64,000 nucleotides of DNA from a bacterium (GTDB lineage: Bacteria; Patescibacteriota; Minisyncoccia; Phycocordibacterales; UBA1006): contig JAYVHO010000011.1 in assembly GCA_043771175.1 (NCBI GenBank), positions 12,352 through 76,351 of the forward strand. The letters run 5' to 3'. Both the position numbers and the translations under genes were made by a program. Below, piece after piece: positions 1,526 through 22,128 of this stretch (the stretch's first letter is position 1; each line of letters begins with the position of its first letter). The notes below the pieces were generated by a model, which saw only the letters and a list, made by a program, of their open reading frames with translations, ran no database searches and had not been told where the DNA came from.

Positions 1526-2014
1526 TTATTCCGGTATTTCTTTATATGGATCTATATATATGGCTGAATCAGGTATGACTACCTCTTTCTCCTCGGTTGA
1601 CTGCCCTTCTTTTGGTTTTATAGGAACAATAAGAATGTGAGTTTTTTCATTCTCAATTTCTTCTTGTTCAAGTTTTTTTAAATGAATATCTAGATTCTGT
1701 TCAAGAATTTCATATCCCTTTACAATTCTTTGAAGTAATCTTTTGTCTAAATCATTGCAAAAAACCCTAATACTTGTTTCTGATAATTTTGTACGTTCTT
1801 TGATTTGATTATAAAAATTTGGAACATCAGAAACGTCAAGTAATAAATACCCAACTTCACGCACAATTTCAAGTGCATCTTCTTCAGTAAAACCATGTTC
1901 TTGGCAAATAAGCAATATGGTTTCAATCCAATCTGTTTCTTCAATGACAGCAGTATCAAGTAAATTTTTTGCTAAAAGTTTTTCATTGATTTTAGAAATT
2001 TCATCAGCAATCAT
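1526..2014 (-). CDS. Hypothetical acidic protein (162 aa)
   Basis: Intact ORF with own -10 box; no recognisable domain. Confidence 0.55.
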   Translation of the reverse strand: MIADEISKINEKLLAKNLLDTAVIEETDWIETILLICQEHGFTEEDALEIVREVGYLLLDVSDVPNFYNQIKERTKLSETSIRVFCNDLDKRLLQRIVKGYEILEQNLDIHLKKLEQEEIENEKTHILIVPIKPKEGQSTEEKEVVIPDSAIYIDPYKEIPE

Positions 2015-2023
2015 AGTACATCA

Positions 2024-2032
2024 AGTATATCA
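2024..2032 (-). promoter_or_regulatory. Extended -10 box TGATATACT
   Basis: 9 nt before ATG 2014; its TGA is the stop codon of 2030..5608. Confidence 0.5.
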
Positions 2033-5000
2033 CTTCTTATCATCTTTCTTTTCATCTTTTTTATCCGGTGCTTCTGCTTTGATTTTAGTTTTATTAAAAC
2101 TTGATGCAACCCTATTTCCATCTTTATCAATTTCCATACCTTGTATTCTATCGGTGAATGCGATGTGCTTATCGCGATATGTAACATCTCTATTTAATTT
2201 ACTCTCCATAGAAACTGCTGCTTTTTGAACACCTTTTTGGACTATTGACCTTGCTCCATCTACAAATGCGCTTCCTGTTGGCACTGCATTTGCCAAGTTA
2301 TTTGACATATCTTTCAACTTCTTTTCTGCAAATGCTTTAGCATTATCAATTTCAAAACTGGCATCATTAAGTGCTTCTGCTGCCATTCTAAAGGTACCCA
2401 GTGTTGCCACTTCAGAAACTCTTCGTGAAATATTATTAATTTTTATCCTCTGATCTTGGGTATGTTTTTTAATATCTTTAAAATCACTCTTTGATTCCTC
2501 TCGTAATTGTTCTTCTTGCTTAGAAACGTTCATATTTTGTTTTTTATACTCAGTATTTTTTGATTCATATTCTTTAAGCTGAACTGCCATTTCATCTTTA
2601 TCTTTTCCAAATTGACGCTCAAGGAATTTATCATATTCTTCCTCTTTATCCTTTTTTTCGTTCATAATTATATTAAGTTTTTCATCAGCATTTTTAGTTT
2701 CTCTCTCTACTTTTTCTTTCAAGTTTTTAAGTCTTTCTTTTTCATCAACAGCGCGTTTCAGTGGAGCTGCATTTGCAGCAGCTGTAGCTTTTAGGGTTGT
2801 GATATCAGCATCAAATGTTGCAATTTTTGCATCATTGTCATTCATCTCAAGCCTATTTGCATCTATTTTAAGTTGTATTGCATCTTTTTCTGGTTGTGTT
2901 GGCGCAACCATTTTCATTTGCTGTAACTGAATATCTTTTTGTTCCAATGTATTCTTGCGGTTTAATAAATTATTTTTATCACCAAGATCTTTAATGCTTT
3001 TTTCAACAGTAATTCTTTGTGCATCCAGCAAATCAAATCTCGTACTTGCCGTATTAAAATCTGTTACTGCATTTGTAATCAAAGCACTTTTTGCAATTGC
3101 ATCATTTTGAGAATTAACAATTCTTTGCACTTGCTGTATTTTTTTTGTAATCGAACCACTATTTTGCTTAATTTCTTCTTCTCTTGTTCTTTTTTCAACT
3201 CCTTCAAACTTTTTTAACTTTTCAATTCTCTCATCCAGATACAGTGTTGGATCAGCTAAAATAGTATTAGCACCATGCGCTGTTTCAAGTGCAACCAATT
3301 TTGCTGCATCATCGCGCTTTGCTTTTTTTTCTTTTTTAATATCATCAGTATCTGTTACCAAATCTGCTACATTATATGTTTTATTTTCAGCAAAATCTTG
3401 AGTGAGTGATGCTTTTGCTTTTCCTATCATTTCTGCAAAGTCAATTTTTGATTGTCTATGCTCTCTCAGTTTTAATGCCTTTGCATTGCGTTCATCAGTT
3501 GTCACAGCAGGCATGTTATTAATTTCTGCTAATGCGAATTCAAACATTTTTCCTTGCGCAGTTTCAATATCAAGAATTCTCTTTATAACACTACTAAGCG
3601 GGTTTTTAATAGGATTTGCACGATAACCATCAACCGCATCTTTTATCCCATTGGTTGCAAAATCAAGTGTTGTATTATCTGAGTATCCTCCATCGATATT
3701 ACTGATTGAGTTTCTCATTTTTTGATTATTTTTATCAAATTCATTAAAGTTTTTTTCATTACCATTAAATGCAGTGTCAACGATATCTTTCTTTTCATCT
3801 TCCATATTCTTTTTTGCTTCATCTCGTTTTACACGTTTTTCTTTCATGGCAATATCAAACTCTTCTTGTTTATCTTTTTTAATTTCATCGGCAAGTTTTT
3901 GATAATATTCATCAACCTTATTACCATGTGCTATTAGCCCTCCTTCACGCCCTTCTTTTATGAACGAAGAAAGATTGTATCCATACCCAAGCGGAATTCT
4001 TCCAACATCCAAATAATCTTTTCCAAAGATTTTTGTACTTTCAAAATCAACACCAGTATCAAGTTTCATACCAACCTTTTCTCCATATTTTTTAAATCCA
4101 CCCAATTTTTTACCCAAATCACGTGCATCCCATGATCCTTCTTTCCCATATTTTTGCATGCTCTTCATAGTATTTCCGCGTAAAAGTTGAAGGCGATTTG
4201 AAATTGCATTTCCTTTACCCGTTGCCATATTCATACGAGCTTGTCGTGCAACAGCTGCACCTTGTCCAAGTGTTTTACTCCCTGCAAACGCTGCGCCAAG
4301 TGTTGACCGTGCTGCCAGTCCAGCCCCACCCATCACCAGTCCTCCCACTGCCCCCACCACGCTTTTAGCGCCAGATGCCAAAAATTCGCCAAATGATGTA
4401 GAAAACTTATCGGTAACTTTTTTTGTCATAATAACAATTCCAAAAACAATTATGAGTGGAATCATCCAAAAAATTAACTCTTTGAAAAGTACATCCGCTG
4501 AAGCCCCTGGAGCAATAGTTGCGCTTGAAGAGGTAAACACAATTAAGTTAATAGAAACCACAGTTAGATACATCATAAATAAAAACACCGCTGGCTGAAA
4601 TGCCATTTTTGCAAGATTTGAAGTATATGATTCAAATCCAATTTCTTTGAGTGCTGGTAGATCAAACATTTTTTTAAGCCACGGAATATTTACTGATGAT
4701 AAAAAAGCAAGCGGCGATGCAATCATTAAAAACCAAAGACCAAACGTTCGCGCAAAAAAATAAAATGCAATATTTAAAAACATGTATATCATAAAAATAT
4801 ACATAATACTTCCAATAATAAGATAACTATAAATTACTACCCAACTACTATTAAAAGCACTCAAAGTATTACTACTACCTCCAATGGCAGTAACCAACCT
4901 TAAGGCATTAGATTTATTGATAACAGCAGCAGTAATAGATCTGACTTTCAGTGGAAACCCTGCCCCATCAAATTTTGCAACGTTACCATCTACTGAAGGA

Positions 5001-5608
5001 ATATCGCTTTCTTGCAAATCCATCGCCCTATAAAAAACGCGCGCTGTAATGTTTCCTCCATCTATTACTACTTTCACAAAAAATAAACTAAAATTAATTA
5101 ACAGTGCAGCAATCGCGATACTAATTAACTGCTTTTTCCATGTATCTCCTCCTTTATTTACTATCATGTTCCCCGCAATAGTTAAAAGTATCATGATAAA
5201 AAAGATATTAATAAAGTCTCGTATCATCGCCCACCCCTGAGTAATCCACCCTTGCTGGTTATTATACGTTAAAGATTCCAATGTATATGCAATAATAATG
5301 TCCAATATCCAACCAGCAAATTTTACTAATGCTGCTGATGTTTGAAATATAATCCAAAAAATTCCAAATACGGTACACTGTACAATAGAAGTAAACACAC
5401 TAAATCCTTCACATTCAGTTGGCACCTGAGCATATGCAATGTTAACGTTGGTATTAATATGGAAACTCTTTGAAACCTTATTCTGAACTTCAATTTCTTT
5501 AATTTGAAGTGTCACCGGCGCCACCATAAACAGTGCCACACTTGCCATAAAAAATCCTGCCAACATTTTTGCAGAAATAATTTTTTTAAGCTTTGCAAAC
5601 ACGTTCAT
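2030..5608 (-). CDS. Large polytopic membrane protein with ~700-aa Lys/Glu-rich coiled-coil tail (possibly TrbL/VirB6-like)
   Basis: 1192-aa ORF; N-terminal signal-like segment, many hydrophobic helices in first ~440 aa, Gly/Ala-rich segment, then K/E/D/N-rich heptad-like sequence; TGA stop. Confidence 0.8.
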   Translation of the reverse strand: MNVFAKLKKIISAKMLAGFFMASVALFMVAPVTLQIKEIEVQNKVSKSFHINTNVNIAYAQVPTECEGFSVFTSIVQCTVFGIFWIIFQTSAALVKFAGWILDIIIAYTLESLTYNNQQGWITQGWAMIRDFINIFFIMILLTIAGNMIVNKGGDTWKKQLISIAIAALLINFSLFFVKVVIDGGNITARVFYRAMDLQESDIPSVDGNVAKFDGAGFPLKVRSITAAVINKSNALRLVTAIGGSSNTLSAFNSSWVVIYSYLIIGSIMYIFMIYMFLNIAFYFFARTFGLWFLMIASPLAFLSSVNIPWLKKMFDLPALKEIGFESYTSNLAKMAFQPAVFLFMMYLTVVSINLIVFTSSSATIAPGASADVLFKELIFWMIPLIIVFGIVIMTKKVTDKFSTSFGEFLASGAKSVVGAVGGLVMGGAGLAARSTLGAAFAGSKTLGQGAAVARQARMNMATGKGNAISNRLQLLRGNTMKSMQKYGKEGSWDARDLGKKLGGFKKYGEKVGMKLDTGVDFESTKIFGKDYLDVGRIPLGYGYNLSSFIKEGREGGLIAHGNKVDEYYQKLADEIKKDKQEEFDIAMKEKRVKRDEAKKNMEDEKKDIVDTAFNGNEKNFNEFDKNNQKMRNSISNIDGGYSDNTTLDFATNGIKDAVDGYRANPIKNPLSSVIKRILDIETAQGKMFEFALAEINNMPAVTTDERNAKALKLREHRQSKIDFAEMIGKAKASLTQDFAENKTYNVADLVTDTDDIKKEKKAKRDDAAKLVALETAHGANTILADPTLYLDERIEKLKKFEGVEKRTREEEIKQNSGSITKKIQQVQRIVNSQNDAIAKSALITNAVTDFNTASTRFDLLDAQRITVEKSIKDLGDKNNLLNRKNTLEQKDIQLQQMKMVAPTQPEKDAIQLKIDANRLEMNDNDAKIATFDADITTLKATAAANAAPLKRAVDEKERLKNLKEKVERETKNADEKLNIIMNEKKDKEEEYDKFLERQFGKDKDEMAVQLKEYESKNTEYKKQNMNVSKQEEQLREESKSDFKDIKKHTQDQRIKINNISRRVSEVATLGTFRMAAEALNDASFEIDNAKAFAEKKLKDMSNNLANAVPTGSAFVDGARSIVQKGVQKAAVSMESKLNRDVTYRDKHIAFTDRIQGMEIDKDGNRVASSFNKTKIKAEAPDKKDEKKDDKK

Positions 5609-10491: not shown

Positions 10492-11256
10492 CTATATTCT
10501 TGTTACCACCTCATTCCCCTTTTCCGTAATAATCACCGTATGTTCAAAGTGAGCAGCTGGTTTTTTATCTTGTGTTATTACCGTATATTCATCATTTTGA
10601 AAAATAATATCCTCGGTTCCCAGAGTTAATTGTGGTTCAATAGCAATTACCATTCCAGGAACCAACATGATACCTCTCCCCCTGCGGCCATAATTGGGAA
10701 TAAATGGATCCTCGTGAATATATCGCCCCACACCGTGGCCTACCAACTCGCGAACAATTCCGGTACGCTTATTTACAAATTTTTCAATAGCACAGCCAAT
10801 ATCGCCAACGGTATTTCCTGGTAACGCTTGCATGATTCCTACTTCTAGAGCTTCTGCGGTGATGTTCACCAAATCCCTAACGTCTTTAGTTGATTTTCCC
10901 ACAATGATAGTTCTGGCGTGGTCGGTATAGGTGCTTTTCCACAACACGCCACAATCTATAGAAACAACGTCTCCTTCTTTGATAATTCTTTCACCAGGAA
11001 TTCCATGAACAATTTGTTCATTAATAGAAACACAGAGAGTTTTTGGATATGGTTTTGAAACACCTTCTGGGGTATAACCTTTAAATGCAGGAACGGCGCC
11101 ATGCTTTAAAATTTCTGCCTCCGCCAAGACATCTAGTTCATTGGTAGTCATACCAACTTTGGTATTATCTATAACATATTGCACCACGTGTGCCAAAATC
11201 TTGCCTCCTTCTCGTATAGCATCTAATTCTTCTTTTGTTTTTATGATAATTTTCAT
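10492..11256 (-). CDS. map: Methionine aminopeptidase type I
   Basis: MetAP fold motifs (VVSIDCG, GHGVG, IAIEP, FEHTV); start at MKIIIKTKEELD. Confidence 0.93.
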   Translation of the reverse strand: MKIIIKTKEELDAIREGGKILAHVVQYVIDNTKVGMTTNELDVLAEAEILKHGAVPAFKGYTPEGVSKPYPKTLCVSINEQIVHGIPGERIIKEGDVVSIDCGVLWKSTYTDHARTIIVGKSTKDVRDLVNITAEALEVGIMQALPGNTVGDIGCAIEKFVNKRTGIVRELVGHGVGRYIHEDPFIPNYGRRGRGIMLVPGMVIAIEPQLTLGTEDIIFQNDEYTVITQDKKPAAHFEHTVIITEKGNEVVTRI

Positions 11257-11315
11257 GTATGCACTGTACCAATAAAGTGGGTTTTTAGCAATTGGAATAA
11301 AAGAAACTATCATAT

Positions 11316-12260
11316 TTAGGTTTTTATAGTGGTTATGGGACGAGATTGAAGTATATATAGAATCTCATCTTTTATAGCCCATTCAACATCACATGCATAA
11401 CCGCTCATAATCTCTATATCTTTAACCGCTTTGGCAATTGAAGTAATATTTTCTTTACTAAGTACTCTAGAATTTGCTATATTATACGGCAATTCAATCC
11501 ATTCACTTCCGCCTCCATCTTTCGGATAAACACTCTTGTTTTTATGGTTTATAACTTCTTCTATAATTTGAAAGTTATCCTTTAACAAACCATAACTATC
11601 TGGAGTTACCATTCCAGAGACAACAGATTCTCCAAGCCCATAATTTGCTTCAATAAGCATCATGTTTTCATCTTCACTTATTGGGTGAACAGAAAATGCG
11701 ACACCTGCCTTTTCTGCAAAAATCATATTTTGAATAATAACAGCAACAGCGATGTCACTACCAAAACCGCTCCTTAACCCATAATGAATAGCTCGAGGAC
11801 CATAGAGTGAAGCCCAACATAACTTTAATTTATTTAGAATGTCCCATCTTTCAACATTTAAAAAGCTTTCAAGTTGACCTGCCCACGCATGATCGAGGCC
11901 ATCCTCTACTGTGGCCGAAGACCTAACTGCAACATTACCCAACCCTAGGTATGAAAATTGAGACATTATTGATTCAGCTATCTCGTTTGGGATTTTTGAA
12001 TCCATAATTAGTTTTTTTATATCAAGGGAGGCAGATTCAAGTGTATGTGGAATATTTAAGTTGATAGTGTTTAAGATTGACTTTATTTTTTGTTTCAGAT
12101 CTAGTGATATCATAAAGTCCTTAAACGCTTCTGTAGTAACCACAATACCATCAGGAACATTGAAGTTATGTCGACATAAGCAGCTTAATGACGCAGCTTT
12201 TCCTCCTACTTTCTTAGAATCTTCTAAAGATAAGTGTCTTAATGTTTTGGCATAGTACAT
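11316..12260 (-). CDS. Stand-alone PpsA/PPDK N-terminal ATP-grasp (nucleotide-binding) domain protein
   Basis: VGGKAASL, VAVRSSATVEDG, WASLYGPRAIHY, DVEWA..LQSRPIT collinear with PEP synthase N-domain. Confidence 0.85.
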   Translation of the reverse strand: MYYAKTLRHLSLEDSKKVGGKAASLSCLCRHNFNVPDGIVVTTEAFKDFMISLDLKQKIKSILNTINLNIPHTLESASLDIKKLIMDSKIPNEIAESIMSQFSYLGLGNVAVRSSATVEDGLDHAWAGQLESFLNVERWDILNKLKLCWASLYGPRAIHYGLRSGFGSDIAVAVIIQNMIFAEKAGVAFSVHPISEDENMMLIEANYGLGESVVSGMVTPDSYGLLKDNFQIIEEVINHKNKSVYPKDGGGSEWIELPYNIANSRVLSKENITSIAKAVKDIEIMSGYACDVEWAIKDEILYILQSRPITTIKT

Positions 12261-12268
12261 ATTTTCTT

Positions 12269-12967
12269 TTATTTTGTTTGAATATCGGGTCTTGATTGAA
12301 GTACTGGCTTGTTGTCAACATACGTACGAGAAATCATTGGGTGAGCTTCATCGGTCGGTCCATTTTCTGAATCTGGATGATATGTAACAACCACCAGACG
12401 TGTTTTTGAATAAAATGCATGATCAATATTTTCCTCCATAATTAAAAACCCTCCGGTCCTAAGCTCGTATGATTCTCCTCCCACATCACAGGATCCTTCA
12501 CCCTCAATTACAATCGCGCAACGAAGAGAAGGGTGTGTGTGACTATGTTGATTTATTCCTGCAGGGAAATACATAACATTTAAACAAGGCAAACCCATCT
12601 TTGGAGGATGAATTGCGATAGAGTCTTTGGCACCATCAATATATTTCAATCTACCGTCGCTTTCGATAGGGCCATTTATTTGAAAAGGTATGTCTTCCTC
12701 AGAAAGAATTACCCAGGACTGTGCCAGCGTTGTTGTGTTTATAATATTTAAAGGAATTACTGCTGTGGAGTTTTTTGCAATTGCATACAGTCCAAATAAT
12801 GTTTCCACTGAACCAGACTCCAGGCTAATAATATAAGCTGATTTCCATCTTGTTTTTTTATATTCAGAAAAATCAAAATTTTCAACAATACCTAATATTA
12901 ATACTGGATGAACATTTTCGACGATTAATGCTTCATGTTTGCAGAGTGAATTAAAAAACTTATACAT
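12269..12967 (-). CDS. Cupin-fold protein
   Basis: NQHSHTHPSLRCAIVIEGEG and GGFLIMEENIDHAF match the two cupin motifs. Confidence 0.7.
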   Translation of the reverse strand: MYKFFNSLCKHEALIVENVHPVLILGIVENFDFSEYKKTRWKSAYIISLESGSVETLFGLYAIAKNSTAVIPLNIINTTTLAQSWVILSEEDIPFQINGPIESDGRLKYIDGAKDSIAIHPPKMGLPCLNVMYFPAGINQHSHTHPSLRCAIVIEGEGSCDVGGESYELRTGGFLIMEENIDHAFYSKTRLVVVTYHPDSENGPTDEAHPMISRTYVDNKPVLQSRPDIQTK

Positions 12968-12976
12968 ATCTTTACT

Positions 12977-13510
12977 TTAATTTAAAACGTATTGCCATTC
13001 TTGTTGCCACATCCATGGCTCAACAACTACTTCTTCAAGTGGCTTATTATTACAAATACATTCAAGTCCATATTGTGTTGCACGATGGCCCACAATTACG
13101 ATTGTGAGATTATCATATCGTTCTTTTAATCCAGCAAGAAAATCAGACATTCGATTCAAGCAATCGGTATAACTTTCACCGTGTGGGTATGGTGCGAGAA
13201 CTGACTCAAGACGTTTGTCTTCCATTTCTTTCTTGCTACATCCATTCATATCTCCATAATTACATTCTCGTAGTCGCCAATCCATAATAATAGGTACATG
13301 ATGTTCTTCGAAGGCTAAAAGACCGGTCATATACGATCGCTGATGGTCTGAACAAAATACTATATCAAATTTTCTTTCACTAAAATAGTGTTTAGTTTCT
13401 TGTGCTTGTGTAAGACCAAGATCTGATAGTGGCACATTATTCCAACCGGAAGCTATCTTGTTTTCGTTATCAAGGGTTGTTTTATGGGAAATAAAAGTAA
13501 TGTTTATCAT
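12977..13510 (-). CDS. Histidine phosphatase (PGAM) superfamily protein
   Basis: FISHKTT..SGW..PLS..G..QA, SDHQRS, ECNYGDMNG, GHRATQ; RHG motif reads SHK. Confidence 0.75.
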   Translation of the reverse strand: MINITFISHKTTLDNENKIASGWNNVPLSDLGLTQAQETKHYFSERKFDIVFCSDHQRSYMTGLLAFEEHHVPIIMDWRLRECNYGDMNGCSKKEMEDKRLESVLAPYPHGESYTDCLNRMSDFLAGLKERYDNLTIVIVGHRATQYGLECICNNKPLEEVVVEPWMWQQEWQYVLN

Positions 13511-13524
13511 AATAATAAAGGTAA

Positions 13525-13692
13525 TTAATTTATAATTATATGGCCGTTTGTAGCATCTAAGGTGATACGAACACCATCTGGAATGACTTTAGTTGCATGC
13601 AAAGTAGCAATCCCACATGGAATTCCAAACTCCCTACAAACAACTGAGGCATGACTTAGCATACCACCTTCTTCAGTAATTACACCCGCTGA
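13525..13692 (-). other. In-frame continuation after TGA encoding the phosphohistidine motif of the PEP-utiliser swivel domain
   Basis: Same frame as 13693..14940: SAGVITEEGGMLSHASVVCREFGIPCGIATLHATKVIPDGVRITLDATNGHIIIN, TAA at 13525. Confidence 0.8.
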
Positions 13693-14940
13693 TCACTGAA
13701 TTGCATCCATCAAATCAAAATCTGTACCTATTGCAATCATAATATCTCCATTCAAAACCCTTTTTGCGTCTTCTTTTGAAAGTACTATTCTTGCCAAACC
13801 AGAAACAACGCCCTTTGACGCACATGTTGTCTTGATGGTTGTGCGATGCTCATATTTTTGCATAGTTGGAAGCAATGTCTCCTGTATGCATAAATATTCT
13901 GATCTAATAAATACAATCCCTTGTTGTTTACGTTCATAAATTATTTGATGGGAAACAAAATTTTTATCAATCAATAATGTAAGTAGCTCTGAAAGTAAGT
14001 AAAAATTTAAATCTTCTCTTTTAATGTTTAATCTTTGTGAAATCGCATCAAATATTGTAAATTTTATTGCAACAATCTTTCCTAAACGTGCCTTATTGTA
14101 GTCACGAAATGTACCAACTTCTCTCATCAATATAATTAACTCTTTAAGTTTTTCGTCTAAAATTAAATCTATCGTATTGCTATCTTTTAATATATCTTGC
14201 TTTTCTAGACTTACATTACTCAATGACCTTTCCATTTTTTCTTTATAATAATCAAGACTATATGGGGATTCTCCATATGCACAATGCATCCCAGAATACT
14301 TTTTATAATGAGCATTCAAAAGAATACTATATTCATCAATGAGCATACCTTCTTTTATTTTTTTTATTATTACTTCAAAATCTTCTTCCTCCTTTTGAAA
14401 CTCGGTTTTTTCATCAGTTGTTATTAGTTGAGATAGTAAAGACTCGCCATACTTTTCATAATAACCTTCTTCCTTTAGTTTTTGATCAATTGCAGTATAC
14501 AGCGCTCGCTCTATTTGCACTAAATTAACTTGATAAAGTTCACCTAATACTTTATCTTGGATATCAATTAGGGTATTTACTAACTTTATGATTTCACATT
14601 CAAAAAAATTAATTTCATGAAAATCATCTTCAAGTTTGTTAATATGAGTTCTATCAACTTTCATCATTTCTCTTGTCTGTTCAATAATATATGGATCGCC
14701 CATTTTATATCTCTGTGCAACAAGTGTTTCTAAAAATTCCCACTCCGACTTTGGTGCGTACGATAAAACTATTCCATCTTTCCACTCCACCCTTGTATTT
14801 CTAAAGCGAATTGAATTTATTCTAGGTAAGTGTCGATTATAAAGATTGTGTATAAATTCTGCACCTAAAAGATGCTCGACTTTTCGCATATTTATTAACT
14901 TCCATTCATCTTGTTCAAGATTTTGCTTATCACGAATCAT
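13693..14940 (-). CDS. Unknown N-domain plus first half of PEP-utilising enzyme mobile (swivel) domain, interrupted by in-frame TGA
   Basis: C-terminus ASKGVVSGLARIV..GDIMIAIGTDFDLMDAIQ then TGA; domain continues in frame. Confidence 0.8.
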   Translation of the reverse strand: MIRDKQNLEQDEWKLINMRKVEHLLGAEFIHNLYNRHLPRINSIRFRNTRVEWKDGIVLSYAPKSEWEFLETLVAQRYKMGDPYIIEQTREMMKVDRTHINKLEDDFHEINFFECEIIKLVNTLIDIQDKVLGELYQVNLVQIERALYTAIDQKLKEEGYYEKYGESLLSQLITTDEKTEFQKEEEDFEVIIKKIKEGMLIDEYSILLNAHYKKYSGMHCAYGESPYSLDYYKEKMERSLSNVSLEKQDILKDSNTIDLILDEKLKELIILMREVGTFRDYNKARLGKIVAIKFTIFDAISQRLNIKREDLNFYLLSELLTLLIDKNFVSHQIIYERKQQGIVFIRSEYLCIQETLLPTMQKYEHRTTIKTTCASKGVVSGLARIVLSKEDAKRVLNGDIMIAIGTDFDLMDAIQ

Positions 14941-15046
14941 AACAGTTTCTAATTACTTACAAATATATACTACATCTATTGAATATTCTTACATATTGAC
15001 ATTTATCAATAAATATATATTATTATATTAAACAAATATTAAAATT

Positions 15047-15484
15047 ATGGAAACACTGAAAATCAGAAAACAAAAAAAGCTAAATAAGGACGCAATTCTA
15101 ACGAAGGTTGCAAAGTTTGTTAAGATAAATAGGCTCGTATTTCACAAAAAATTTGATTTCCCGAAAGTCGCCGATTGCGAAGCTTATATTGAGATTCTCG
15201 AATATTCAACTCGAACCTCAACAAATCAGGTACTTGCAGACATACATCGAAAAAAAATGATTCGACCTCAAATTTCGGATGTTTTTTTCTTTTTGCTTGA
15301 CTGTTGTGAAATATTAAACCCAGGAAGACGAATTGTCTTTTTACATGAATATTTCCCTTGGTCCGGCTTCATGTTTTATGCTGTTGTTTCAACAACAGAA
15401 AAAGAGACACGACTGGACTTGGTTTCTCCAGGAGAATATTGGACCGAAGATTTTACGTTCGCCGCTATTAAACAAAGTGTTTAA
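15047..15484 (+). CDS. Hypothetical protein (145 aa)
   Basis: Intact ORF 18 nt upstream of the nucleotidyltransferase gene; no domain recognised. Confidence 0.5.
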   Translation: METLKIRKQKKLNKDAILTKVAKFVKINRLVFHKKFDFPKVADCEAYIEILEYSTRTSTNQVLADIHRKKMIRPQISDVFFFLLDCCEILNPGRRIVFLHEYFPWSGFMFYAVVSTTEKETRLDLVSPGEYWTEDFTFAAIKQSV

Positions 15485-15502
15485 CTAAAAAACCTTAAAC
15501 AA

Positions 15503-16216
15503 ATGAAAAAAATACATATCGTTGCAGGAGGGAAAGGCGAAAGAATTGCAGATTATTGTGATGTAGTTGGAGTAAAGGTTAAACATTTACTCCCAGTAGC
15601 AAATACTAATCTTCTCCTTAATAATTGTCAGCAAGCACTCTCTTCTTTTAAACATATCGTTGTTTCTGCTAGTTCTCAAAACGTAGGTTATTTTGAAAAT
15701 TTTTTTTATACAGAAAAAAGATTTCATAAGCAAGTAAGTCTTAGTATAGATTATCAATTAACTGGTCCACTTGGTCCAATTGCAAGAGAAATGTTTCGAT
15801 CAAAAAGTAAAACATTATTTCTAGCAACTGGTGACGCATATGCAGATTTTGAATGGGAAAGTTTAATTAAGTTTCATCAGAAAGTAAAAACACCAGTCAC
15901 CTTACTAGCCGCTGCTTCTGTGTCTGTTCCAAACGGTGCCGTGTTTACAGTTAGAAATGACGGTCTAATAACTGACTGGGAAAGAAAACTGATAACCAAC
16001 GAAACAGATTTAATAAATATTGGTTATTATTGCATTAATAACGATAAAGAAGTTAAGCAAATATTTAAGAAAATGACCCAACACAAAGAGGACGACTTTT
16101 TTAAAGAACTTATTTCAAAAGAATTAGTTTCGGCATATGTAATTCCTAATGCATTTAACGTAAATACACTCGAAGCATACCGTGCGTTACAAGAGTATAT
16201 CCTTATGAAAAAATAA
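15503..16216 (+). CDS. Nucleotidyltransferase (NTP_transferase family)
   Basis: N-terminal IVAGGKGERI resembles the sugar-phosphate nucleotidyltransferase G-x-G-x-R loop. Confidence 0.7.
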   Translation: MKKIHIVAGGKGERIADYCDVVGVKVKHLLPVANTNLLLNNCQQALSSFKHIVVSASSQNVGYFENFFYTEKRFHKQVSLSIDYQLTGPLGPIAREMFRSKSKTLFLATGDAYADFEWESLIKFHQKVKTPVTLLAAASVSVPNGAVFTVRNDGLITDWERKLITNETDLINIGYYCINNDKEVKQIFKKMTQHKEDDFFKELISKELVSAYVIPNAFNVNTLEAYRALQEYILMKK

Positions 16217-16231
16217 TCCGTTTAATGTTTT

Positions 16232-16258
16232 AAAAAGCCTAATATTATTAGGCTTTTT
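16232..16258. terminator. Bidirectional intrinsic terminator
   Basis: AAAAAGCCTAAT-ATT-ATTAGGCTTTTT between convergent genes. Confidence 0.7.
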
Positions 16259-16261
16259 AAA

Positions 16262-16855
16262 TTAAAACAACGCTTCACAGATACTCGCAAATACCTCTTC
16301 AACCGATCCATTGCCATCTATTTCATGAAAATGGTATTTTCTATAATCTTTGAGCAGTGAAAGTGCTGGCATGGTGTTAGTGTCAAACCATTCCAATCTA
16401 TTTTTAATGTATTCATCGCTATCGTCACTACGTCCACGAGATTTCATTCTTTTAAAACATTCTTCTTTTGAAGAATTAATATACACTACATGAATATTAA
16501 ACCTCTCAAAAAACTGTAAGGCTTGCTCTGCCACTAACACCTCTTCGCTTCTTCTACAAAACCCATCCATAATTAAATCTGAATCCTTTTTACAATCCGT
16601 CATAAGCCGGTGAGTCCATGACCAAATTGGTAAACACGCCGGCATGAGTCTCCCCTTTTCGATATTAAACTTTACAAGGTGCCCACCATAGGTGTCCATT
16701 TTTGCAGCTTCGCGAAGTAGTTCACCAGTTTCTATGGTTACCACATGACGTGCACGTTTTTGTAAAAAATGTTTCATTAAAAGAGATTGAGTTCCCTTTC
16801 CTGAACCTGATCGTCCAAAAAGTAAAATAGTAAATGGCTCTTGTGGTGCATGCAT
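16262..16855 (-). CDS. adk: Adenylate kinase family protein
   Basis: P-loop GRSGSGKGTQ, position after secY; start at ATG 16855 behind TGCTATACT. Confidence 0.85.
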   Translation of the reverse strand: MHAPQEPFTILLFGRSGSGKGTQSLLMKHFLQKRARHVVTIETGELLREAAKMDTYGGHLVKFNIEKGRLMPACLPIWSWTHRLMTDCKKDSDLIMDGFCRRSEEVLVAEQALQFFERFNIHVVYINSSKEECFKRMKSRGRSDDSDEYIKNRLEWFDTNTMPALSLLKDYRKYHFHEIDGNGSVEEVFASICEALF

Positions 16856-16866
16856 ATATTGAATTA

Positions 16867-16875
16867 AGTATAGCA
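16867..16875 (-). promoter_or_regulatory. Extended -10 box TGCTATACT
   Basis: 11 nt before adk ATG, right after the secY terminator. Confidence 0.45.
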
Positions 16876-16905
16876 AACAAAAAACACCATTTAGGTGTTT
16901 TTTGT
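16874..16905 (-). terminator. Intrinsic terminator after secY
   Basis: AAACACC-TAAAT-GGTGTTT hairpin then TTTTGTTTG on minus strand. Confidence 0.6.
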
Positions 16906-16935
16906 TTTAGCTGGATCTCCGCTTGCGGCGAATGA

Positions 16936-18210
16936 CTATAGATTTCCAAGCTCCAAATATGCATCAACTTTCTTGATAACATCAGTGATTACGTTAACCG
17001 CAATCAAAACTGATGTTCCTCCAATTGCAAAGAGGGCCATATTGGTAGCGTTTTGTACAATAACGGGAAGTACTGCAATGATCCCCAAGAATACGGCACC
17101 GAATACCGTAATTCGAGTAAGCACCTTTCCAATATATTCTGCCGTGTCTTCTCCTGGGCGAACGCCTGGGATAAACGCACCATTCTTTTGAAGATTTTCT
17201 GACATCGCTTCTACATCAACGGTAACCGCCGTGTAAAAAAATGTAAAGATTACTACTAAAAGAAAATATACTACCGGATACCAAATTTCTGTTTGAGAAA
17301 AATTAGTAAACGCTGTTGAAATTTTATACAGTGTTCCTGTGGTTGAAGATCCAACAATTAATTTAAGAATAAATTGTGGGAACAACAATATTGCTGGAGC
17401 AAAGATAATAGGCATTACTCCTGTCATGTTGATACGAAGAGGAATGTAACTGGCAACTCCTCCAAACATGGTTCCACTGCGCACTGCTTTGGCGTACGTT
17501 ATAGGAATGGGACGTTCTGCTTCTGTTACATAGGTAATACCTGCAATAATAACAAGAAGGAGAAGGGTAATTCCAATATAAAGTGGTAACATTTCTGGAG
17601 AATAGGTTTGAACTGCTTGAGAAACAACTCGTGGAAGTGATGCAACAATACCGGCAAATACCAACATTGATGTTCCATTTCCAATTCCGTATTCGTTCAA
17701 GAGTTCTCCTATCCACATAATAAGCATTGAACCAGCTGCCACAATAAGCATGTTGGTCATCATTACCATGGGTGTTAAGTTTGGAATTACTCCTTGTTTT
17801 GAAAGAAGAAGTAATAATGCCAAACCTTGAAGTAGTGCAATAGGAACGGTTGCAAGACGAGTAAAACTATTGAATTTCTTTCGTCCAATACTTCCTTCTT
17901 CGTGATACATCTTTTTAAGTGATGGAATCATCACCGTCATAAGTTGTAAAATAATTGAAGCGGTAATATATGGCCCAACTCCAATCATTCCAAGAGAAAG
18001 GGTTGAAAGACCTCCTCCTGAAAAGATATTAAGAAGTCCGAGGAATTGATTCGCGTTCAAGAAGTTTTGAATTTGCGTGGTGTCAATTCCAGGAATTGGG
18101 ATATTTGAAAGAAACCGAAGAGCAAAGAAACCAATCAAAATAGCCAAGAGTTTTAAGAGAATCCTTCTATCTTGAAACATTGCGGTAATTTTTGCTATGG
18201 CTGTATTCAT
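16936..18210 (-). CDS. secY: Preprotein translocase subunit SecY
   Basis: 424 aa, 10-TM SecY pattern, position after rplO. Confidence 0.96.
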   Translation of the reverse strand: MNTAIAKITAMFQDRRILLKLLAILIGFFALRFLSNIPIPGIDTTQIQNFLNANQFLGLLNIFSGGGLSTLSLGMIGVGPYITASIILQLMTVMIPSLKKMYHEEGSIGRKKFNSFTRLATVPIALLQGLALLLLLSKQGVIPNLTPMVMMTNMLIVAAGSMLIMWIGELLNEYGIGNGTSMLVFAGIVASLPRVVSQAVQTYSPEMLPLYIGITLLLLVIIAGITYVTEAERPIPITYAKAVRSGTMFGGVASYIPLRINMTGVMPIIFAPAILLFPQFILKLIVGSSTTGTLYKISTAFTNFSQTEIWYPVVYFLLVVIFTFFYTAVTVDVEAMSENLQKNGAFIPGVRPGEDTAEYIGKVLTRITVFGAVFLGIIAVLPVIVQNATNMALFAIGGTSVLIAVNVITDVIKKVDAYLELGNL

Positions 18211-18222
18211 ATAATTTCTTAC

Positions 18223-18672
18223 TTATTCTGTAATAATACCAGAAGCAGCAATAATTGCATCATGTGCAGCTTTTGAGATTTCAATATCCTCAAACGTAAG
18301 TTTTTTGGTTATTGTTCCATATGAAAGGAGTTTTATAGACTTCGTACGAAGTTCTTTAAAACTAATGATTCCTTTTTCATACAAAGTGATTGGATTTACG
18401 GTTTCTCCGGCGTTGTAGAATCTTTCTACTGAAGAAAGGTTAACCGCATGAGGACGTGCACGGTAGGCGCTTTGACTTGAACGTCCATTGGTACTTTGAC
18501 CACGGAGCTTAGGCAATCGTTTAATAATGTCACGCATTTCTGGACGCATTTTTGCTCCAGCTCGGGCAGTTTGTCCTTTTCCTCCTCGTCCTGAAGTTTT
18601 ACCGCGCTTTCCTCCTCGTCCTACGCGTTTAGCGTCGATTTGGTTGGTTGATCGTTTAATGGTGTTTAACAT
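18223..18672 (-). CDS. rplO: 50S ribosomal protein L15
   Basis: GRGGKRGKTSGRGGKGQ motif; operon position. Confidence 0.94.
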   Translation of the reverse strand: MLNTIKRSTNQIDAKRVGRGGKRGKTSGRGGKGQTARAGAKMRPEMRDIIKRLPKLRGQSTNGRSSQSAYRARPHAVNLSSVERFYNAGETVNPITLYEKGIISFKELRTKSIKLLSYGTITKKLTFEDIEISKAAHDAIIAASGIITE

Positions 18673-18680
18673 ACATTGAC

Positions 18681-19430
18681 TTATCGGTTAGGGGAACGAC
18701 TGTCGCGCATTTGACGTCCTTTTGCTTCTTCATCTCCTTCTGTGTACGCGGTCATTTTTGGTGCTCCGCGACTGATAATGAAAGGCTCCAGAGCTTTAAT
18801 AGTTGCGCGAGCAATGTTAAGACTGTTCTTTGATGGTGAAATTACTTTTCCGGTAAGATCTTGGATTCCTGCGAATTCCATAACCGTACGAAGTGATGAT
18901 CCCGCCACTAGTCCACGTCCATAGTTTGGACGAAGCTCAATTCGTGCTGAGTTTGACTTAGCAGAAACTGAGTGTTCAATAGAATGTTCATTGGTAAGCT
19001 TAAGAGTAACCATGTTCTTTCGAGCATCGTTATACGCTTTATCAATAGCTAAAGCAGTATCTTGTCCTTTTCCAACTCCAACTCCCACTGATCCTTTTTT
19101 GTTTCCAATAATTAAGGTAATTGAGAAACTAAATCGGCGTCCTCCTTTTACTACACGAGTAACACGACGAGCTGAGATCATTTTTTGATCAAATTCAGGC
19201 TTAACTTTTTCACGAGTCATTTTGCCTTTTGCTCCTCTTTTATCGCCATCTTTAGAAATACGAGCGCGTCCTGCACCTGCTGATCCACGTGGACCACCTG
19301 ATTGTGGACGGCGGCCACCTGGTGCTTGCGCGCGAGGTGCTGAAGATTGTGCAGGGGCAGCTGATGTAACAGGAGCAACTGGTGCTGCCGCTACAACTTC
19401 TGCATTGTTTGTTGTTTGTGATTCTTCCAT
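18681..19430 (-). CDS. rpsE: 30S ribosomal protein S5 with long Ala/Pro/Gly/Arg-rich N-terminal extension
   Basis: RVTRVVKGGRRFSF core; start ATG 19430 one nt after rplR stop; only 8 nt to rplO, so no rpmD. Confidence 0.93.
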   Translation of the reverse strand: MEESQTTNNAEVVAAAPVAPVTSAAPAQSSAPRAQAPGGRRPQSGGPRGSAGAGRARISKDGDKRGAKGKMTREKVKPEFDQKMISARRVTRVVKGGRRFSFSITLIIGNKKGSVGVGVGKGQDTALAIDKAYNDARKNMVTLKLTNEHSIEHSVSAKSNSARIELRPNYGRGLVAGSSLRTVMEFAGIQDLTGKVISPSKNSLNIARATIKALEPFIISRGAPKMTAYTEGDEEAKGRQMRDSRSPNR

Positions 19431-21396: not shown

Positions 21397-22128
21397 ATGA
21401 AACCTCACCATAAAGAAAACACTATTTATACACTACTTCTGGTTGTAGTGCTGGGAATTATTGCGATATTTGCGGTCAATGCTGCCAAAGGACTTGATAG
21501 TATGCAACCACAAACACCAAAAGTATCTATCTCAACAACGTATCCTGAAATTATATCCAGCCCTCTTGCTGCACTCAATATTAACGAGTCAGACCTTACT
21601 GCTTGTACATCTGATCCTGCCACTTCAGATATTATTGACACTGACATATCAGAAGCTGGAGCCACGGGAACTCCACTGTTTTATATTTATTCTGACAAAA
21701 TTGCGTACAAAATTGTAGGAGCTATTCCAGCAGAAATGTTTACGGGCCTATTATCTGCAATTGAACAAGGACAAGACCTTCCCATTCCAGAAGATTCAAA
21801 AGACAACTTCCAAAAAGTTACATTTGATGACACTAATACATTTATTAAACAAAATGAAACTGACACACCACTACGAGTTGATTTAAAAACTCCAACAGTT
21901 ACTATTGTTGAATATGGTGATTTATCTTGCCCTGCGTGTAAGTATGCTCACTCAGAGCTTAAAAAAACATTAACTGACTCACCCAAAACACAATTTATAT
22001 TCCGCCATCATCCACTAACCAGTCTTCATGAATTTGCATACGATCAAGCAAAAGTTGCGATATGTTTGCAAAAAATCGCTGGACCAAAAATCTATTGGGA
22101 CTTTGTTGATCTTTCTTATAGAGAATAA
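21397..22128 (+). CDS. Membrane-anchored DsbA/thioredoxin-like protein, apparently permuted
   Basis: TM anchor; VEYGDLSCPACKY CxxC segment lies after a GATGTPLFYI..GAIPAEMF segment that normally ends the domain. Confidence 0.8.
   Translation: MKPHHKENTIYTLLLVVVLGIIAIFAVNAAKGLDSMQPQTPKVSISTTYPEIISSPLAALNINESDLTACTSDPATSDIIDTDISEAGATGTPLFYIYSDKIAYKIVGAIPAEMFTGLLSAIEQGQDLPIPEDSKDNFQKVTFDDTNTFIKQNETDTPLRVDLKTPTVTIVEYGDLSCPACKYAHSELKKTLTDSPKTQFIFRHHPLTSLHEFAYDQAKVAICLQKIAGPKIYWDFVDLSYRE

Follow-up and report, generated by a model that had tools for sequence, protein, structure and literature searches.

An in-frame TGA in the phosphohistidine swivel domain of a predicted split phosphotransferase of a Paceibacterota bacterium, most likely a young pseudogene

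The window considered here, i.e., the whole stretch of 64,000 nucleotides that was analysed, has a G+C content of 36%. Its minus strand carries an open reading frame (ORF) of 415 amino acids at 13693..14940, with the terminus ...GTDFDLMDAIQ followed by a TGA (TCA at 13693-13695 when read on the plus strand). This 415-residue product is the form annotated by gene callers. Past the TGA, the frame continues unshifted for 55 codons, SAGVITEEGGMLSHASVVCREFGIPCGIATLHATKVIPDGVRITLDATNGHIIIN, up to a TAA at 13525-13527. The interrupted gene and its surroundings contain the following features:

13693..14940, minus strand: upstream part of the interrupted gene, encoding the helical substrate-binding region and the first third of the swivel domain
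13693..13695, minus strand: in-frame TGA in the context CAG-TGA-TCA
13525..13692, minus strand: in-frame remainder of 55 codons plus TAA, encoding the remaining part of the swivel domain; His codon at 13651-13653
12977..13510, minus strand: histidine-phosphatase superfamily gene between the interrupted gene and the PPDK_N gene (PF00300, 97.5 bits)
12269..12967, minus strand: cupin-domain gene, also between the interrupted gene and the PPDK_N gene (PF07883, 35.8 bits)
11316..12260, minus strand: intact ATP-grasp (PPDK_N) partner gene of 314 amino acids (PF01326, 268 bits)
15047..16216, plus strand: two genes of 145 and 237 amino acids, examined by family searches
16229..16261, no strand: perfect 16-nt inverted repeat (palindrome) between the convergent adk and 237-amino-acid genes
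11252..16263, no strand: lineage-specific block between adk and map (~5.0 kb, six genes), delimited by blastn against a relative

The TGA corresponds to residue 416 of the read-through product. It lies inside the swivel domain because a match to the PEP-utilizers mobile domain (PF00391) extends from residue 397 to residue 466 and so spans this position. The match of the read-through translation covers positions 3-72 of the 72 in the profile and scores 58.8 bits against a cut-off of 23.1 (E = 4e-16). With a TGA at codon 416, the domain is not encoded by any single uninterrupted frame, and judging from the profile match the continuation of the swivel domain across the TGA is far beyond chance. 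The remainder of the gene keeps the invariant motif TEEGG.LSHA..V.RE, and no second stop or frameshift is present in the gene besides the TGA. The initial annotation of this DNA had claimed that the frame runs on past the TGA to the TAA at 13525 and that the catalytic histidine is downstream of the TGA. The translation and the PF00391 match bear out the first claim; the second is also correct, the histidine codon at 13651-13653 being 3' of the TGA.

PF00391 is the sole Pfam match on the read-through protein, which ends with the swivel domain. The histidine of the GG-x-(T/L)-S-H-A motif is present as TEEGGMLSHAS. In most of the related loci, a PPDK_N gene is located directly beside the homologue. 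Matches to the NCBIfam models of PpsA, rifampicin phosphotransferase (RPH) and PigC-type proteins are all far below their cut-offs; for example, the PpsA models TIGR01418 and NF005057 give 77-83 bits where the cut-offs are 740 and 598, and the RPH model NF041857 gives 60 bits against a cut-off of 999. The ATP-grasp partner scores well against both the RPH and the PpsA models.

A structure model of the closest homologue (P0002; pLDDT 93.4) stood in for the window protein. The top matches in a Foldseek search with this model are 5fbt and 5hv1, both of which are Listeria RPH (E ~1e-15, ~15% identity), and the match spans the helical substrate-binding domain together with the swivel domain. Sequence alignment to RPH covers the last ~170-240 residues. 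In the P0002 model, the TGA column is the final residue of a helix (residues 420-428), beyond which come a strand (431-434), a helix that starts with His442 and three further strands. The fold of the family is closest to that of the Listeria monocytogenes RPH (PDB 5fbt and 5hv1; NF041857). However, RPH and the window gene are only ~15% identical, and RPH has all three domains in a single chain, whereas here the ATP-grasp domain is in the separate 314-amino-acid gene. The swivel phosphohistidine domain with GG-x-(T/L)-S-H-A is also common to PpsA (pyruvate, water dikinase; PDB 8a8e and 2ols). PpsA itself was rejected as the identity of the protein, the bit scores being far below the cut-offs and the window protein being without the C-terminal PEP/pyruvate-binding domain that PpsA has. 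Because PPDK_N is encoded separately and the fold of the P0002 model is closest to RPH, we predict that the interrupted gene and the PPDK_N gene together specify a split RPH-like or PpsA-like phosphotransferase.

The six genes of the block are those for the 237- and 145-residue proteins on the plus strand and, on the minus strand, the interrupted gene, the histidine phosphatase (His_Phos_1), the cupin and PPDK_N. Family searches gave a weak nucleotidyl-transferase match for the 237-residue protein and no match for the 145-residue protein, and the NCBIfam matches of the histidine-phosphatase gene are all below their cut-offs. A close relative, GCA_036405175.1 (a 668-kb contig with a SecY that is 83% identical), does not have the block and has ~60 nt in its place; its genes are otherwise arranged alike from S19 to a large gene of 1213 amino acids, but map comes directly after adk. 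A closer relative, with an 88% identical SecY, is seen only on a 1.9-kb Logan contig (P0123). The blastn alignment to this relative stops at window position 16264, the end of adk, and resumes at 11251, the start of map, the break points on the relative's locus (L070) being 12162 and 12222. Therefore, the ~5.0 kb in between is considered lineage-specific. The G+C content is 33.3% for the block and 31.5% for the interrupted gene. The borders of the block have no terminal repeats or mobile-element marks, only the terminator-like palindrome, and this 16-nt inverted repeat probably acts as a terminator in both directions and delimits the block on one side. The block may have been gained recently. 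Since a relative with an 83% identical SecY is without the block, the interrupted gene is an accessory one that this clade can do without.

Homologues were sought among ~5.8 billion protein clusters from a collection of ~15 billion proteins that includes the Logan and ENA assemblies. The matches consist of the truncated product itself and then of intact Patescibacteria proteins of ~485 amino acids with 38-47% identity. The genome from which the window comes is absent from the GTDB representative set, in which the best match is 43% identical. The window gene was aligned with 119 homologues (120 sequences), and all 119 are uninterrupted. The TGA fills exactly one column of the alignment, in which the homologues have R (60), L (22), I (13), K (9), M (4), Q (4), T (3), V (3) or A (1); G, W or C occurs in none of them. 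The solved PEP synthases have R or K at this position, which in PpsA is part of ...AMKRAAAIVTDEGG.... The codons found at the column in related genomes include AGA, CGA, CGT and AAA, with AGA in the closest reference-genome locus. TGA is one substitution away from AGA, CGA or the leucine codon TTA. Because AGA and CGA are found at the column and are both common in the window (228 and 145 uses, respectively), a single substitution would be enough to create the TGA. The initial annotation, which relied on an alignment to PpsA and rifampicin phosphotransferase, had placed the TGA at exactly one variable residue position. That alignment was correct, and the comparison of codons among the orthologues gives a sense codon in every homologue, most often for arginine.

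Residues T, E, E, G, G, L, S, H and A of TEEGGMLSHAS are invariant or nearly so among the 120 sequences, and the window gene keeps all of the invariant residues 3' of the TGA (T, E, E, G, G, L, S, H, A, R and E). At the near-invariant columns 3' of the TGA it departs at 2-3 of 20-22, a count that puts it in the top 1-5 of the 119 homologues. At those 5' of the TGA it departs at two of 59, which 26 of the 119 homologues reach. The excess of departures after the TGA involves small numbers and would be a weak hint of relaxed constraint.

We consider it very probable that the organism uses the standard code and that the TGA arose by a real and recent nonsense mutation in an accessory gene that can be dispensed with. 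The gene would encode one half of a two-gene enzyme, with the substrate-binding region and the phosphohistidine swivel, and the gene at 11316..12260 would encode the ATP-grasp half. A sense codon one step away, such as AGA or CGA for arginine or TTA for leucine, would have become TGA; translation would then halt at codon 416, and the swivel domain would lose one strand, the helix with the catalytic histidine and three further strands. The role of the swivel-domain histidine is established in PpsA, PPDK and RPH, and so the truncated product would presumably be unable to take phosphate from the ATP-grasp domain and deliver it to a substrate, and would have lost its function. Since such a product could not carry phosphate, the gene would be a young pseudogene or a null allele that is fixed or dominant in the population. 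The mutation appears to be recent because the downstream catalytic motif is intact and other lesions are absent. The intact 55 codons downstream would fit a recent mutation and would also fit continued selection on a read-through product.

Fresh inactivation by a nonsense substitution was the first of two alternatives in the initial annotation, and it is supported by the sense codons at the column, by the otherwise intact gene and by the relative without the block. The situation resembles that of the Salmonella nonsense pseudogenes or 'pseudo-pseudogenes' (PMC9122581), in which likewise one in-frame stop interrupts a non-essential gene that is intact elsewhere. As in ordinary bacterial nonsense pseudogenes, the stop is one substitution from the sense codon of the homologues. 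The present gene differs from the Salmonella readthrough pseudogenes in being from a metagenome-assembled member of the Paceibacterota, and in that the context of its stop is not C-rich.

Another possibility is that the TGA comes from an error of sequencing or consensus calling, or that it segregates in the population beside an intact allele. We consider this unlikely. The site at 13693-13695 was read directly in two assemblies, an ENA scaffold, BUSI22-1_SAMN19433714_METAG-scaffold_113 (99.8 kb, ggKbase-style), and a Logan contig from SRR23617300. The two agree on the TGA and match the window at 100% over 17-21 kb. Two samples are reported for the Logan contig, and the 415-amino-acid product is encoded in exactly this form by four contigs. 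A third assembly, the k141 contig of ERZ27315211, was tried as an independent strain and rejected as such: its gene calls differ, yet its DNA is 100% identical to that of scaffold_113 (compared on the right flank). Because all of the assemblies are 100% identical and represent one population, they provide no independent strain. What favors an error or a variant is precisely this origin of every record from one population, together with the fact that a metagenome consensus can hide polymorphism. However, the TGA is not an assembler artefact, and the collection of ~15 billion proteins, in which the Logan and ENA assemblies are included, has no intact 471-amino-acid allele of the gene.

The remaining explanations, in which the UGA is translated, depend in part on how this organism and its relatives use TGA. 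The 62 ORFs of at least 100 amino acids in the window end in TAA (53), TAG (7) or TGA (2), and the two with TGA are the interrupted gene and a gene of 1192 amino acids. TGA ends about three of the 95 genes on the scaffold and none of 24 genes in GCA_036405175.1; other relatives with a low G+C content have similarly few, e.g., one of 24 and one of 20. On the extended scaffold, an R3H/Jag-like gene 3' of yidC ends in TGA two residues past the end of the R3H profile match (positions 2-59 of 60), and the TGA is followed by AT-rich non-coding sequence and then by TAA TAA. Because the R3H/Jag-like gene ends there at its natural C-terminus, TGA would be a working stop. The capacity to terminate at UGA is weakly documented because TGA stops are so rare. 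No release-factor gene is present in the ~81 kb of scaffold that was searched; presumably the organism has RF2.

The second alternative in the initial annotation was that the UGA is decoded. A near-cognate tRNA (tRNA-Trp, -Arg or -Cys) or a suppressor would read the UGA and yield enough enzyme for selection, and decoding might be easier if UGA terminates weakly in a clade with so few UGA stops. We think that this is very unlikely, and the claim received no positive support from the analysis. The fully intact catalytic motif downstream, the intact PPDK_N partner gene and the rarity of TGA stops (none of 24 in the relative) would agree with decoding, but the R3H/Jag-like gene ends in TGA at its natural C-terminus, the unusual substitutions are slightly more frequent downstream than upstream of the TGA, and no tRNA-UCA was found in the ~81 kb of scaffold. 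Low-level readthrough of nonsense pseudogenes is documented in Salmonella (PMC9122581), but there the read-through stops are enriched for C at positions -1 and +4, where U makes up 0% and 12.5%, respectively. The interrupted gene has G at -1 and U at +4. The resulting G-UGA-U context is the same as that of the genuine TGA stops, AG-TGA-T being common to all three TGAs, and by comparison with Salmonella it would not be the leaky kind.

A stimulatory RNA structure is not apparent either. The initial annotation had pointed to a hairpin, GGTATG-CTAAGT-CATGCC, about 30 nt downstream of the TGA. The hairpin does exist in a 66-nt local fold, but it does not stand as a significant structure. The minimum-energy fold of the 101-nt region does not contain it and has a z-score of -1.02 relative to shuffled sequences (32 of 200 shuffles are at least as stable), and the hairpin overlies the most conserved codons of the domain, those for GG-M-L-S-H-A; on these grounds it was rejected as a recoding signal. 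The remark that the hairpin does not look like a canonical bacterial SECIS holds, and Rfam gives no match to a SECIS or any other family at the TGA, either at the gathering threshold or at E values up to 10. In the 101-nt fold, the UGA itself is part of a 9-bp stem; this stem is partly made by the mutation and is overall not significant.

Re-initiation was considered as another functional route. An internal ATG is located at 13660-13662, after GAAGGTGG, and its methionine is unique to the window sequence among the 120 aligned. This route was rejected because the 45-residue product would lack the invariant TEEGG strand and because only two of 62 genes here are preceded by an SD-like motif.

A genetic code with UGA as a sense codon, either in the organism itself or in the donor of the block (code 25, Gly, or code 4, Trp), is highly improbable and was rejected. 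According to a Codetta survey (PMC8629427), the only known bacterial UGA reassignments are to Gly, in Absconditabacteria and Gracilibacteria, or to Trp. The code-25 Gracilibacteria and Absconditabacteria are, like the present organism, Patescibacteria (CPR) with a low G+C content in which TGA is rare as a stop, and the gene is in a lineage-specific, possibly acquired block. However, SecY places the organism in Candidatus Paceibacterota, and not in the code-25 clades. Reassigned genomes have in-frame TGAs in most of their genes, hundreds of them in the code-25 clades. Here, no second interrupted gene is apparent in the window (62 ORFs of at least 100 amino acids, ~19,000 codons), the block has one in-frame TGA in ~1,500 codons, and the gene lengths match those of the relative's orthologues over 21 kb. 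In addition, the column has neither G nor W, and the conserved R3H gene is ended by TGA. One other observation might be read in favor of a reassigned code, namely that the 1192-amino-acid gene is followed by two TGAs and then by an ORF in the same frame. The second stop after this gene was discarded as proof that TGA is a stop, it being also a TGA with the next ORF in the same frame; the 162-residue protein that follows has no homologues in the searches except itself.

Selenocysteine at the UGA is close to excluded and was rejected: although the UGA is within an enzyme domain with a small hairpin ~30 nt downstream, none of the 119 homologues has Cys or Sec at the column, which in the P0002 model would be a variable residue on a surface helix and not a redox site, the hairpin is not significant and is too far downstream for a bacterial SECIS, Rfam and ARAGORN detect no SECIS or tRNA-Sec (the Rfam matches in the window are four ordinary tRNAs only), and no selA, selB, selC or selD was seen in the ~81 kb of scaffold.

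Thus, the feature is most likely an ordinary young pseudogene that an uncultured CPR bacterium carries in an accessory block. In practice, it matters for annotation: the 415-amino-acid database entry represents a swivel-domain protein cut short and needs to be flagged as a pseudogene, and reading it as a new domain architecture, or as a sign of an alternative code, would be a mistake. A more speculative scenario, to which we give only a very slim chance, is that UGA termination is weak in this clade, that readthrough keeps a working phosphotransferase and that UGA is drifting toward an unassigned or sense codon. Termination at UGA might be weak because members of the clade almost never end their genes with it. 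If readthrough in this UGA-avoiding clade were true, the gene would be a testable intermediate of stop-codon reassignment in the Patescibacteria and a natural snapshot of UGA drift outside the known code-25 CPR clades.

The S10 ribosomal-protein operon of this organism is in two pieces (minus strand of the window, from 25728 to 10492; locus L065, cited beside the window, 14407-18749). One run consists of S19-L22-S3...L15-secY-adk...map, and the second, tuf-S10-L3-L4-L23-L2, is located about 10 kb further downstream, past four large genes without a family match. In the relative GCA_036405175.1, too, S19 is not preceded by L2; the genes before it are RecJ, RNase H and one of 224 aa. Therefore, the split of the S10 operon is common to the clade. 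Three features of the region are:

21397-22128, plus strand: DsbA/thioredoxin-like gene flanked by the L5 and S14 ribosomal genes, in the opposite orientation
16229-16261: perfect 16-nt inverted repeat, arms TTTAAAAAGCCTAATA / TATTAGGCTTTTTAAA, between the convergent adk and 237-aa genes
11313 (start), minus strand: map ORF as listed, 273 aa

The DsbA/thioredoxin-like gene is also present in the relative (its locus L070, 6228-6956).

The adk-map interval holds a block of about 5.0 kb with six genes (window 11252-16263). The close relative GCA_036405175.1 does not have the block, and about 60 nt are found at the corresponding place. No flanking repeats and no integrase were found at the block. 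The inverted repeat probably serves as a bidirectional terminator. At the other edge, the listed map ORF is extended at its N-terminus by 19 residues, which overlap with the intergenic region (window 11256-11313, minus strand). Because the homology of map with the relative begins at 11251, we predict that translation probably starts at the ATG of 11254-11256 instead, which would give a product beginning MKIIIKTKEEL....

One of the block genes encodes a histidine-phosphatase family protein (window 12977-13510, minus strand). The catalytic motif of this family is normally R-H-G-x-x-x-x-N, whereas this protein has F-I-S-H-K-T-T-L-D-N at the same position, with Arg replaced by Ser and Gly by Lys. 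The protein is possibly a diverged representative of the family, or one that has lost its activity.

The 1192-aa gene (2030..5608) encodes a coiled-coil, low-complexity product, and its 3' end reads AAG TGA TAT ACT TGA TGT ACT ATG (window 2015-2032, minus strand). Two TGAs at the end of the gene are followed, with the frame unchanged, by a 162-aa ORF (1526..2014), whose protein matched only itself in the protein collection. The 1192-aa and 162-aa frames may be two genes or parts of a single one.

Of the 62 genes in the whole window that encode 100 aa or more, only two carry GGAG, GAGG or AGGA in the 25 nt before the start codon, and so Shine-Dalgarno sequences seem to be little used in this organism. 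The commonest stop codon is TAA (window, the accompanying loci L065 and L067, and L070). In the same set, TGA stops account for about three of the 95 genes on the scaffold that contains the window and for none of the 24 in the relative; TGA as a stop is very rare clade-wide.
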